Shown here in pieces: positions 47,425-51,632 of a stretch of 64,000 nucleotides of DNA. Origin of the DNA: an uncultured Cytophagia bacterium (lineage in GTDB: Bacteria; Zhuqueibacterota; Zhuqueibacteria; Oceanimicrobiales; CAZGRP01); contig CAZGRP010000016.1 of the NCBI GenBank assembly GCA_964527995.1, positions 806 through 64,805 of the forward strand, in the 5' to 3' direction. The position numbers and the translations under genes were made by a program. The notes beneath the pieces are model-generated. The model worked only from the letters and a program-made list of their open reading frames with translations, did not search any database and was not told where the DNA came from. Positions within the stretch are counted from its first letter, which is position 1; every line of letters starts with the position of its first letter.

Positions 47425-48306
47425 ATGGATGTGAGATCGGATTCTTTTCGAAAGGGGCTTTTGGAACTGATTCGGCGCAGCTCGACCGACCTGCCCGTCG
47501 ATGTCGAGGCTGCGTTGCGCCAGGCCCATGGTAGGGAGGAACCGGGTTCGCCGGCGGAAGGTGTACTGCGAGTCATTCTGCGCAACATCGGTCTGGCACG
47601 CGAGGCTGGCACGCCCCTCTGTCAAGACACCGGGACCCCACTTTTTTTTGTGTCGCACCCGATCGGGGTGAGCACCAACGACATCCGGAAACAGATCGAA
47701 GCTTCGCTGGTGCGCGCAACCGAACTGGCTTACTTGCGGCCCAACGCAGTCCATTCCCTGACTGGCGAGAATTCGGGCAACAACCTGGGTCGTGGATTCC
47801 CGCAGATTCACTTTGAAGAGTGGGAGCGCGACCAGTTGCGCATCGATCTGTTGCTCAAAGGCGGCGGCAGCGAGAATGTCGGCGCCCAGTACAAGCTTCC
47901 GGATACGCGGCTGAACGCCGGTCGCGACCTCGCCGGCGTGAAAAAGGTCGTGCTCGATGCGATCTTCCAGGCGCAGGGGCGCGGCTGTTCGCCCGGCGTG
48001 ATTGGCGTCGGCATCGGCGGCGACCGCAGCTCGTCCTTTCTTCTGGCCAAGAAGCAGCTTTTCCGCAAGCTGACGGATAAGAACGAAGACGAACTGCTTC
48101 GCGCCGCCGAACAAGAGCTGTTCGAAAAAGCCAACCAACTGGAGATTGGGCCGATGGGATTCGGCGGCCGCACCACGGTACTGGCCGTCAAAATGGGGTG
48201 GCAACATCGGCACCCGGCCAGCTTTTTCGTGTCGATCGCCTACATGTGCTGGGCCGACCGCCGCCACAGTCTGATTGTCCAGAACGGTGGATATGAGATC
48301 CTGTAG
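47425..48306 (+). CDS. Class I fumarate hydratase / tartrate dehydratase alpha subunit
   Basis: PLCQDTG, LRPN, KGGGSEN, GCSPG, GIGG, GPMGFGG, HPAS, CWADR. Confidence 0.92.
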   Translation: MDVRSDSFRKGLLELIRRSSTDLPVDVEAALRQAHGREEPGSPAEGVLRVILRNIGLAREAGTPLCQDTGTPLFFVSHPIGVSTNDIRKQIEASLVRATELAYLRPNAVHSLTGENSGNNLGRGFPQIHFEEWERDQLRIDLLLKGGGSENVGAQYKLPDTRLNAGRDLAGVKKVVLDAIFQAQGRGCSPGVIGVGIGGDRSSSFLLAKKQLFRKLTDKNEDELLRAAEQELFEKANQLEIGPMGFGGRTTVLAVKMGWQHRHPASFFVSIAYMCWADRRHSLIVQNGGYEIL

Positions 48307-48407: not shown

Positions 48408-51400
48408 ATGCTTGAATGGCTCCAGCGGACGAGCCTGGGGTTGTTCGTTCTACTCTGGCTTGTCGCAGCGATGGCGGCCGAAAACCGAGATGTCCGCGGG
48501 CTGCAGGCCGGTGTCCCAGCCGCCTTCATCCGCGATCTGCAATCCTTTCAACCCAATCGCATCAGGGTTGACGTCGACAATCGCGGGCACATCGTCAGCT
48601 GGTTGCGCAGCGGCGACGCCGGGATGGAGTGGCCGGCGGGAAGTGCTCTGACCCTCGATTTTACCTCAGGCCTGTGGGTCCTGGGGAAAGTGGACGGACA
48701 ACTTCGGTCGGCAGTGGCTGAGTATACCAGCGAGTTCGTTCCTGGCGTGGTCGTCGGAGGCGTGGCACAGGATGCCGACGACCCTCGTTTTCGGATCTAC
48801 ATCATCACGCGGCAGGATCTGTTGGCGGCTCTGGATGACGATCCCCATACCGCACCCGGAAAAGACTACCGCCAGTGGCCGTTTGCCGATGGCGCTCCGG
48901 CATTGAAGGCGAGTGACGGCAGCGATAGCCTCGATGCCGAAGGAAATCGCATCCCGCTATTGCTCGGAGACGCATCGCTCTGGTGCGTGTTCAACGACTT
49001 CGATACCACGGCGCACAACGACCTGTGGCGTACGCCTCCGCTCGGGTTGGAGGTGCAGATGCTGCTGTGGGGCTACAACGGGCCAGGATCGCTGAAAGAT
49101 GTGCTGTTCGCCCGCTACCTGCTGATCAACAAGGGCCCCAACCGCATCGACTCCACTTACGTGGCCCTCTGGGACGACGGCGACGTCGGTGATCCGGTCA
49201 ACGACTTTGTCGGGTTGGACACGACCTTGCAAATGGCCTACATGTGGAACGACGGCCCAGACGACAGGTATGGGCCCGAGGCGCCGGCCCTGGGATACAT
49301 GTGGCTGCAGGGGCCGATGGTGCCCTCACCAGGCCACAGCGCACGTTTCTTCGGCCGTCTGCGTCCCGGGTTTGACAATCTGCCGGTGACGGCGTTCTCT
49401 AAGTTCACCTGAGGAGCCCAGGCCTGCCGTGATCCGCAGGTTGTTCAGGAAGCCTTCAACTACGCCCGGGGATTGCTGTGGGACGGAACGCCTCACGTCA
49501 ATCCTCTGACAGGAGAGGTGAGCACGCTGCCGTACGCAGGGGATCCGGTCTCCGGCCGGGGCTGGATCGACCCTCTGGAAGAGCCTTCTGGGGACCGGCG
49601 CCTGTTCCTGGCCAGCGGGCCTTTTACTTTTGCGCCCGGAGACAGCCAGGAGGTGTTCGTGGCCGTGATGGCGGCCCAGGGTACCGACAACCTCAACAGC
49701 ATTGTTCGGCTACGGGAGCTCGCGGCCGGCGTCCGGAGGCTCTTCCAGAACTGGTGGCGATTCGATCAAGGCGCCCTGTTCACGCCGTCGCCACCGCCGC
49801 CCCCGGATGTTCAGGTCGCCGAGCTTCCAGGACGGGTGGTGCTGAGCTGGAACGCGCGACCCGAATCCTATTCGAGCGTTCAGGGCGTCGAACCCAGCAA
49901 AAACGCGTCGGGCTATCGATTTCAGGGGTATAACGTGTACCAGCTCGATGCAGGCGATGCAGAGGAGGCAACTTTCGTTTGCCGGATGGTCACCTTCGAT
50001 CTCCCCGACGGCGTTCGAAAGATTCGCGATCGGGTCTTCCTGCCTACCATCGGTGAGGAAGTGGAGGTCACGGTTCAGCACGGCACTGACTCGGGAATCC
50101 GGCATTTCCTGGTGGTCGATGAGGATTCCCTTCTGCATCGGCCGCTCGTGAACGGACGAACGTACTACTTCGGGGTCAGCAGCTATGCTTACAACCCGGA
50201 AGGATCCGGCACGGTGTTACCGCATGCGCTGGAGGGCCGCCTGAGGGTGGTCGCCGCCACGCCTCACGATCCAGTCCCGGGAACGGTTCTGACCTACCAG
50301 GTGCTGGACACGGTCGCCTTTGCCGGCCCGTCGGGGGCCCGCAACGCCGAACACTCCGGGAAGAGCCGAGGCACGGTTGTGGCGCTGGCCATCGACCCGC
50401 TGGCGATGCCGACGGCGGAGTACCAGGTCACCTTTGCCGAGCAAGGTGGTCAGGTCTGCTGGAACCTGAGCCGGGACGGCACACGTTTGGTGATGGCGCA
50501 GACGAATCAGTCCGGTGACTGGAACTATCCGATTGTGGACGGCCTGCTGGTGAAAGTGATCGGCCCTCCGTTTGCTTTCGCCTCCAACGCCGAAAGCGAG
50601 GCCGCCGGGATTGTGGAGGTGAGCTACGCTGGCCAGCCCGTTCCGCCCGGTGGCTGGGATGTGGCCGGAGCTCCTTACGAGGGCAACTCGGTCTGGCACA
50701 GCGTCAGCTGGTCGGGGGCCGACGGCCAAGCCGATCGCTTCTTCATCAGCGGCGGATCGACAGGCCGACTTTCGGACCTGACGCGCAACATCCGGAAGGC
50801 CGTCCCGCATGACTATGAGCTCCGGTTCAGCGACCGCGGGAGTCTGGGGTGGTGGAAATTCGAGGGTGACGTCAGCGCGCCGGTGCCGTTCGAGCTTTGG
50901 GACATCGGCGTTGCCACGCCGGTCGATCCTGCCGACGACCAGCAGCTGATCCCGGTGCTACACTCCGGGGGCCACACCGTAGGCATCTTCGACATCAGCG
51001 AGACGACGCCAGACCCGAGAAGCGGCTGGCCGGCAACGGATCGGATCTTCTTCTACGCCGATCCACGAGGCTATGCCGCCTTCGCCGCCGACGCCGAGGA
51101 CGGCACGGTCGATGACACCACGTTCGGCCGCACCGAGCTGATTGCCGATGTGATTCTGGCCGACTTCGACCAGGACGGCCGGCTGCCGCCTCCCGGAACG
51201 GTGATCCGATTCAATACGACCAAACCGAACCTGCCTGGGGATCGATTCAGCTTCGAGGTGAGCGGACCAGGGTACCAGCGCGATCTCGCTCGCCAGCAGA
51301 TTCAGCGGATCAACGTGTTTCCGAATCCCTACTATGCCCAGAACCTCGGAACCCTGGATCCTCTACAAGGGCATGTGACGTTCACCCACCTGCCGGAGCG

Positions 51401-51632
51401 CGCAACGATTCGCATCTTCACCCTGGCAGGTGATCTGGTCCGCACCATCGAGCACCACGATCCCAGCACCTTGGAACGCTGGGATCTGCGAAACCAGGCC
51501 GGCACGCCGGTCGCCAGCGGCATCTATCTGGTTCATGTCGCCATGCCGGGACTGGGTGAGAAAGTGCTGAAGCTGGCAGTGTTCCAGCCGGTATGGATCC
51601 CACCCTATTCCAGCCAGCCTCCGGAACCATGA
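48408..51632 (+). CDS. Large secreted T9SS cargo protein, one reading frame interrupted by an in-frame TGA at 49410-49412 (Sec recoding or nonsense mutation)
   Basis: ORFs 48408..49412 and 49473..51632 are in the same frame with no other stop between them (..AFSKFT*GAQACRDPQVVQEAFNYARGLLWDG..); signal peptide only on the first; CTD INVFPNPYY..WDLRNQAGTPVASGIYL only on the second. Confidence 0.8.
49408..49449 (+). other. Candidate bacterial SECIS hairpin
   Basis: Stem ggcctgc(49421-27)/gcaggtt(49436-42), loop cgtgatcc with G at loop position 2; cctga can also pair with tcagg. Confidence 0.4.

Follow-up and report, generated by a model that had tools for sequence, protein, structure and literature searches.

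The sequence analysed here, referred to below as the window, is a stretch of 64,000 nucleotides (positions 806 to 64,805 of contig CAZGRP010000016.1, assembly GCA_964527995.1) from an uncultured Cytophagia bacterium placed in the phylum Zhuqueibacterota, and its forward strand carries at positions 48408–51632 a candidate selenoprotein gene that is interrupted by a single in-frame TGA. The first open reading frame (ORF), 48408–49412, begins at an ATG and ends after 334 amino acids (aa) at the TGA 49410–49412; the frame then stays open to the TGA 51630–51632, and the ORF listing gives a second product of 719 aa in it, starting at the TTG at 49473. Frame translation confirmed what a first-pass annotation of the locus had seen, namely two ORFs in one frame parted only by a TGA, whose read-through of about 1070 aa holds a U-x4-C motif (U, selenocysteine): the product has 1074 aa and reads ..AFSKFT-U335-GAQA-C340-RDP.. 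around the codon in question. Homologs align across the TGA over residues 71–1059, and the reading frame continues downstream. When all lines of evidence are taken together, the in-frame TGA is very probably a real selenocysteine (Sec) codon, Sec insertion itself being predicted, and the gene would be a first indication of a selenoprotein family that has so far gone unrecognised and whose genes are split in two by gene callers.

Searches at the DNA level were carried out in six frames with stops read through, and they found an in-frame TGA at the column of TGA 49410–49412 in 11 other loci, which makes 12 TGA loci with the window. Ten of the 11 lie in genomes of the same phylum and one on a short contig of another metagenome-assembled genome; the TGA-bearing genomes are labelled candidate division KSB1 or Ca. 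Zhuqueibacterota. Among the 40 relatives searched, four paralogs from other families of the class each have a single in-frame TGA aligned with U335 (..SPYY*AH, ..AGFA*G, ..SAYY*GH and ..MVYY*GY, the asterisk marking the TGA), with the frame open for hundreds of codons past it; three of them reach a C-terminal sorting domain (CTD) of the type IX secretion system (T9SS), and the fourth (G035) runs off the contig end. A class-wide search of 125 genomes returned 29 loci, at which the column is TGA in 8 (G039, G093, G086, G087, G035, G090, G030 and G085), Cys, as TGC or TGT, in 5, Asn in 14, Ser in 1 and deleted in 1. The Cys carriers (G041, G034, G023, G028 and G033) are the closest sense orthologs, at 50–64% identity. 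One well-supported clade contains 8 genes with TGA, whose 5 nearest orthologs have Cys; paralogs further away have Asn. A profile search of the phylum (167 genomes) added G070, which reads ..NGYT*GGAFC and has the U-x4-C arrangement, while a scan of the genomes of 185,579 species kept 80 loci (Asn 42, TGA 10, Cys 2, others 26), nine of whose ten TGA loci had already been found and one of which, L154, was new. Judged from the sequences, this alternation of TGA and Cys at one column is the classical Sec/Cys signature. The spacing U-x4-C occurs in the window and G070 only, and U-x5-C in G026. Cys likewise occupies the Sec column, with another Cys downstream of it, in a locus labelled uncultured Ignavibacteria bacterium (L126, match 1495–2787, ..PSA-C-GTYPLLN-C-PP), which may be a Cys-form counterpart outside KSB1, in another phylum.

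In the protein databases, 55 relatives were found, and the 46 full-length ones (1000–1200 aa) were aligned in 47 rows including the query; column 335 holds Asn in 20 of them, Ala in 12, Lys, Arg and Ser in 3 each, Thr in 2 and Met in 1. This set is without Sec forms because gene callers split Sec genes, and a nonsense-mutation reading drawn from it was dropped once the stop-tolerant genome searches had revealed TGA and Cys forms. Each check proposed in the first-pass annotation spoke for Sec or left it standing. In the alignment of homologs at this codon, the TGA conserved at 11 loci and the Cys of one clade speak for Sec; the Asn, Ala and other residues of the full-length homologs, taken by themselves, had looked like the refuting outcome named there. 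Shortened proteins point to the same column. P0062, 57% identical to the N-terminal fragment of the window, ends with ..AFNKYI at the same point as the window ORF. In a HMMER scan of 1.84 billion representatives, from which the 150 best matches were taken, 18 representatives besides the query are shorter than 400 aa, and seven of the 10 that were fetched end at the residue before the column: P0079, P0092 (..AAFLKFT), P0121, P0169, P0145, P0209 and P0213 (..LTSNTVYY). The other 8 (P0095, P0122, P0151, P0163, P0170, P0191, P0204 and P0216) were judged by coordinates alone to end elsewhere. With P0062, eight database protein fragments stop right before the Sec column, although protein fragments do not reveal the type of stop codon and some of the 50%-identity representatives may duplicate DNA loci already counted. 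Fragment ends that arise from contig breaks would not cluster on one column.

The same data bear on a simple nonsense mutation, which would make the locus a pseudogene within a large paralogous family. With many copies per genome (19 family matches in the genome of the window, G000) the loss of one would cost little, a single step separates TGA from the Arg codons CGA and AGA, with Arg at the column in 3 of the 46 full-length homologs, and the hairpin of the window, taken by itself, is within chance. However, a random stop would have to match the exact column of 11 other TGA loci and 5 Cys loci as well as the residue at which the fragments P0062 and P0092 end, and the 739 codons 3' of the TGA are unbroken and show homology right up to the last part, which encodes a well-folded CTD. 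We therefore regard a nonsense mutation as highly improbable and already close to refuted.

In relatives, the family occurs in tandem arrays of three to four copies (G014:C116:681-13025, G030:C16:64406-75301 and G003:C20:138-11500), and the one in G030 mixes a TGA copy and sense-codon copies. The closest paralog within the genome of the window (G000:C10:48258-51607, minus strand) has Asn at the Sec column and is flanked by ORFs that by eye resemble a TonB receptor and PorV. It was considered as a second split gene and rejected, its break being a run of N flanked on either side by a copy of one peptide, a scaffolding artefact.

Downstream of the UGA of the window, an 8-nucleotide (nt) spacer is followed by GGCCUGC pairing with GCAGGUU, a stem of 7 base pairs (bp) including two G-U pairs, and by a loop of 8 nt, CGUGAUCC, that starts at the 16th nt after the UGA and has G at position 2, exactly as it had first been read. 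The hairpin alone has a folding energy of -9.2 kcal/mol. The consensus for the bacterial selenocysteine insertion sequence (bSECIS), as given in a 2026 review, comprises a stem of 4–16 bp, a loop of 3–9 nt that lies 16–37 nt after the UGA and has G and then G/U among its first positions, and a minimum free energy of -7.5 or lower, and the hairpin of the window is within these limits (PMC13188914). For the comparison of loci we applied a fixed rule (an uninterrupted stem starting 4–20 nt after the codon and a loop of 3–14 nt in which position 1 or 2 is G) instead of a covariance model, because the hairpins occupy different registers. A rule-type hairpin of at least 6 bp is present in 11 of the 12 TGA loci versus none of the 5 Cys orthologs and none of 13 Asn paralogs, two of which reach 5 bp; of the Asn loci, 14 in all, this control omits L045, which lies at the end of a contig. 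The hairpin is conserved as a structure, with stem sequences that vary between lineages while the pairing is kept. With an identical register, namely a spacer of 8 nt and a loop from nt 16 on, unrelated but fully paired stems are found in the window, in L154 (GGAUCCG-UGGU-CGGAUCC) and in G039 (GCGGUUC-GUG-GAACCGC), and G086 and G087 have AUUCAGG/CCUGAAU 3 nt further downstream. The 64%-identical Cys ortholog of G039 reads GCGUUUC-AGC-CAGCCGC at the same codons, and its pairing is lost. An Rfam scan of 49350–49550 returned no SECIS family and only chance-level rows for microRNAs and long non-coding RNAs.

The machinery for Sec decoding is encoded in the genome: SelA was found with 496.7 bits, the wing domain of SelB with 65.5 bits, and a tRNA-SeC with the anticodon tca and SelD are present as well, which completes the set of selA, selB, selC and selD whose search had been suggested. 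Three known selenoprotein genes allow a comparison within the same cell, namely SelD (G000:C19:28435-29355, U in SCAG-U-ASK), FdhA (G000:C23:16-2940, single TGA, ..QARI-U-HSS) and a Prx-like UxxC protein (G000:C6:106260-106595, single TGA, ..STTW-U-RWC). Their SECIS hairpins are UGGGUC-CGGGU-GACCUG, GGUCCCA-GGUC-UGGGAUC and GGAAGGA-GGC-UCCUUCC, respectively, with spacers of 10–11 nt, stems of 6–7 bp and loops of 3–5 nt that start with G or CG. The hairpin of the window resembles them, apart from its longer loop, and the four genes have in common a UGA followed after 8–11 nt by a hairpin of 6–7 bp with G at loop position 1–2, as well as Cys orthologs at the Sec position; they would share the decoding machinery. 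In contrast to these three, the window protein is no oxidoreductase and has neither a thioredoxin-like fold nor a UxxC/CxxU motif, its fold being a supersandwich and its motif U-x4-C, and the paralogs of its family have mostly Asn, not Cys, at the site. Another 17 genomes were tested for SelA, and every one has it, among them the 9 further TGA-bearing genomes in this set. SelA was discarded as a discriminator, being found also in genomes with only Cys or only Asn forms, and is a necessary condition. On this subject, a KSB1 genomics paper states only that selA, selB and selD are common in the phylum (PMC9012183). Directly upstream of selD, a frame of 944 codons (G000:C19:29794-32625, minus strand) has many CxxCH haem motifs and a T9SS-type CTD.

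Conserved programmed termination or read-through without Sec would be another way to explain a stop retained at one column. The UGA would then be a functional stop at a domain boundary that yields a 334-aa N-terminal fragment without selenium, and the remainder would come from re-initiation or, now and then, from near-cognate read-through that inserts Trp, Cys or Arg. The separate products of 334 and 719 aa predicted by gene callers fit this explanation, as does the G that is the next nucleotide after all 12 UGAs. Against it stand the position of the column inside the supersandwich domain and not at a domain boundary, the occupation of the column by Cys, for which Sec substitutes, in the nearest orthologs, the occurrence of bSECIS-type hairpins only after TGA forms, the 719-aa ORF, which would be without a signal peptide, and the Sec machinery in every TGA-bearing genome tested (SelA in the case of the other genomes). 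We consider this explanation unlikely.

A sequencing or assembly error, or a reassignment of TGA in this organism, has the lowest probability among the explanations weighed here and can practically be set aside. The genome is a metagenome assembly in 181 contigs, in which an error could be suspected. However, the contigs of two runs from one microbial-mat study (depth 24 and 19.5) both have the TGA at 49410–49412 and show no sense codon, yet they differ at 49232, where one run's contig has A>G, a synonymous change of CAA to CAG in Gln275 and its only difference from the window. This suggests a second strain in which the TGA is retained. TGA is the normal stop in this organism, because this gene ends in it and so do 1278 of the 2219 open frames that span 400 codons or more in the genome. 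The first-pass annotation had called a nonsense mutation or an assembly error equally possible, an estimate that does not hold in view of the column-exact TGA in 11 other loci and the agreement between the contigs of the two runs.

For the protein itself, an AF2 model of residues 1–474 built from 51 aligned sequences (pLDDT 90.6, pTM 0.86) gives an N-domain with the galactose-mutarotase-like supersandwich fold, identified in a VIA wide search, and Sec335 lies in the loop right after model strand 329–334. The best matches are the N-domains of dextran dextrinase (9ju0, Z 18.6), glucoamylase (1lf6, Z 18.4) and glucodextranase (1ulv, Z 18.4), followed by GH94 phosphorylases and GH116 (Z 16–18) and by a GH174 endo-fucanase (Z 14.6); Foldseek against pdb gave only a weak match for this domain (TM 0.36). 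The modelled domain is thus similar to those N-domains of glucoamylase and GH94-type enzymes that have no catalytic function, and shares with the supersandwich domains of 1lf6, 1ulv, 9ju0, GH94 phosphorylases and GH116 the fold at Z 18.6–16 and a root-mean-square deviation (rmsd) of 3.3–4.2 Å over 235–274 residues, but the identity is only 6–13%. No sequence relative of the Sec domain was found in Pfam, NCBIfam or the PDB, the last search giving 0 matches at E up to 1, which agrees with the earlier remark that the protein belongs to no oxidoreductase family. Unlike these enzymes, the window protein has no Pfam glycoside hydrolase (GH) domain and no attached (alpha/alpha)6 or TIM catalytic domain; the downstream part, residues 470–1074, was modelled as beta-sandwich modules (pLDDT 82.6) and the CTD. 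We know of no Sec or Cys at this site in glucoamylase, glucodextranase, dextran dextrinase, GH94 or GH116.

Of the single signal peptide and single T9SS CTD claimed for the read-through product, the CTD is borne out by its fold, and the signal peptide is a reading by eye (MLEWLQRTSLGLFVLLWLVAAMAA/E, the slash marking the predicted cleavage), with a model helix at residues 2–25. In sequence, the CTD matches the PorZ C-terminus with E 2.9e-10, and in fold the PorZ CTD (5m11_A) with Z 13.1, rmsd 2.0 Å, 92 residues and 28% identity; the PorU CTD (Z 10.7) and T9SS-bound substrate CTDs (Z 8–9) come next. With T9SS cargo (PorZ, PorU, RgpB, mirolase and the NucA/RemA substrates) the window protein therefore shares the CTD fold at Z 13.1 to 7.8, but differs in that its CTD is below the Pfam and TIGR cut-offs (FlgD_ig PF13860, 18.9 bits versus a cut-off of 27). 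Family relatives carry PF18962/TIGR04183. Two T9SS components were searched for in the genome, and both were found, PorU with 909.9 bits and SprA with 959.8 bits. The features of the gene are collected in Table 1.

Table 1. Features of the candidate selenoprotein gene in the window (coordinates are those of the window).
Feature	Coordinates	Strand	Basis
Whole selenoprotein gene as predicted, 1074 codons and terminal TGA; callable now only as ORFs of 334 aa and 719 aa	48408..51632	+	Frame translation; homology to 1000–1200-aa proteins crosses the TGA
Predicted signal peptide, residues 1–24 (..AMA/AE)	48408..48479	+	Reading by eye; model helix at residues 2–25
Galactose-mutarotase-like supersandwich N-domain, approximately residues 36–461, containing Sec335	48513..49790	+	AF2 model; fold matches
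UGA predicted to be read as selenocysteine, residue 335	49410..49412	+	TGA in 11 other loci and Cys in 5 orthologs at one column; contigs of two runs
bSECIS-type hairpin: 5' arm 49421–27, loop 49428–35 (CGUGAUCC), 3' arm 49436–42	49421..49442	+	Published consensus geometry
Cys340 codon (UGC) of U-x4-C, within the 5' arm of the hairpin; like arrangement (UGC ... CCG CAG) in G070	49425..49427	+	Sequence
T9SS C-terminal sorting domain, approximately residues 958–1061	51279..51590	+	Fold match to PorZ CTD 5m11_A; sequence match to PorZ C-terminus
True stop codon of the gene, also TGA	51630..51632	+	Frame translation; TGA a common stop in the genome

The gene is flanked by a fumarase alpha-type gene (PF05681, window 47425–48306) and a fumarase C-terminal or beta-type gene (PF05683, 51731–52348). 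Genes for the alpha-type and beta-type subunits of fumarase are normally adjacent.

Several observations weigh against the assignment of Sec to this codon and of a function to its neighbouring Cys. The warning that GC-rich DNA forms hairpins by chance proved justified for the window taken alone: the 66-nt stretch folds worse than most of its shuffled versions (z +1.59; 194 of 200 shuffles at least as stable), and a consensus-type hairpin of at least 7 bp follows 5.9% of 20,000 random TGA triplets in the genome (60.4% GC). The loop of the window, with 8 nt, exceeds the 3–5 nt of the three known SECIS elements of the genome. One TGA locus, L029, is without a rule-type hairpin, and L029 and its relative L032 have only a 5-bp stem, GCGGU/ACCGC, with an 18-nt loop. 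Cys is found at column 335 in none of the 46 full-length database homologs, C340 is likewise not conserved among them, P0002, which among full-length relatives is nearest to the window protein with 66% identity over the N-domain, carries His there, and a tree of 74 N-domains places no Cys homolog in the small clade of the window itself. Related genomes are non-independent samples, and both sequencing runs may be the source of the assembly and hence not independent of it. Finally, UGC, the codon for this Cys in both the window and G070, forms pairs with a GCA in the 3' arm, and the conservation of Cys340 may serve the RNA stem rather than the protein.

The history of the site was followed in the same tree of N-domains, a quick maximum-likelihood tree with support from the Shimodaira–Hasegawa-like approximate likelihood ratio test (SH-aLRT) only. 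The U-bearing genes fall in three places. The first is the YY[U/C] clade, in which 8 members have U, 5 have C and one has lost the residue; the second joins G026 and G070; and the third holds the window, P0062 (stop) and P0002 (His) within a clade that otherwise has Gly, Asn or Arg. That the 17 U/C/stop rows form one clade is rejected by the approximately unbiased (AU) test (p 0.000118), these rows being a group defined by the trait itself and with long branches, L081 and L023, that may affect placement; therefore, Sec/Cys was gained more than once or lost many times. A Cys at column 395 ('PCDVYF') is present in 12 of the 17 U/C/stop rows versus 1 of the 57 others. The one clade member that lost U or C, L042, lost this Cys as well, and in L154 a Cys adjoins column 395. 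A lineage-specific Cys thus accompanies Sec in every Sec lineage examined, which suggests a possible selenium–sulfur (Se–S) or shared-ligand centre. Candidate partners of Sec would be Cys340 in the window and the 'PCDVYF' Cys in the YY-U clade.

We propose that 48408–51632 encodes one selenoprotein of 1074 residues, in which UGA 49410–49412 would be decoded as Sec by SelB with Sec-tRNASec recruited by the hairpin at 49421–49442, as in the SelD, FdhA and Prx-like genes of the genome. Its domains imply that the signal peptide would take the protein across the inner membrane and that the type IX secretion system, recognising the CTD, would then export it across the outer one. The protein would be extracellular and probably glycan-directed. 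Sec and the nearby Cys could form a Se–S pair and act as a selenenylsulfide, redox or metal-binding centre. A wider hypothesis, which we advance tentatively and with somewhat less than even confidence, is that a widespread T9SS-exported supersandwich family of KSB1 and probably other phyla of the Fibrobacteres–Chlorobi–Bacteroidetes (FCB) group carries Sec at one loop position in at least two, apparently three clades, each with a lineage-specific Cys (U-x4/5-C or the distant 'PCDVYF'), and that the two residues give a glycan-directed protein of the cell surface a redox or metal-binding centre of the selenenylsulfide type outside the cell. No earlier class of selenoproteins would then be known among T9SS cargo, and Sec would have replaced Asn-type and not only Cys-type ancestors.

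To our knowledge, the bacterial selenoproteins catalogued so far are almost without exception small oxidoreductases, and many have the thioredoxin fold. The table of a 2026 review has 119 families and subfamilies of prokaryotic selenoproteins, and as listed there none is a T9SS cargo or supersandwich protein, although its supplements might add candidates (PMC13188914). The nearest parallels in this table are the TonB-dependent receptor of the FCYXU type (NF049945), the GSU2204-family outer-membrane beta-barrel and the DUF1573 UGC protein, which share with the window protein a Sec predicted by comparative genomics in a non-cytoplasmic protein, but which, as tabulated, are extracytoplasmic by name only (PMC13188914). 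No NCBIfam selenoprotein model matches the window protein or its relatives, and we found no literature report of Sec in T9SS cargo, nor one that links KSB1 selenocysteine to T9SS cargo. The decoding mechanism is ordinary; what is new is the family of proteins and the place in the cell to which they would be sent.

A secreted beta-sandwich selenoprotein of 1074 residues would extend the use of selenium to the cell surface and the T9SS secretome, and the organisms concerned are uncultured KSB1 bacteria of microbial mats. Such genes are now annotated as two 'hypothetical proteins', and inventories of the secretome and of proteins resembling carbohydrate-active enzymes are consequently wrong at these positions in these phyla. 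Because nature offers Sec, Cys and Asn forms of a single site here, together with several unrelated SECIS stems in the same register, the family is useful for studying how a Sec site and its SECIS element originate within a coding sequence.

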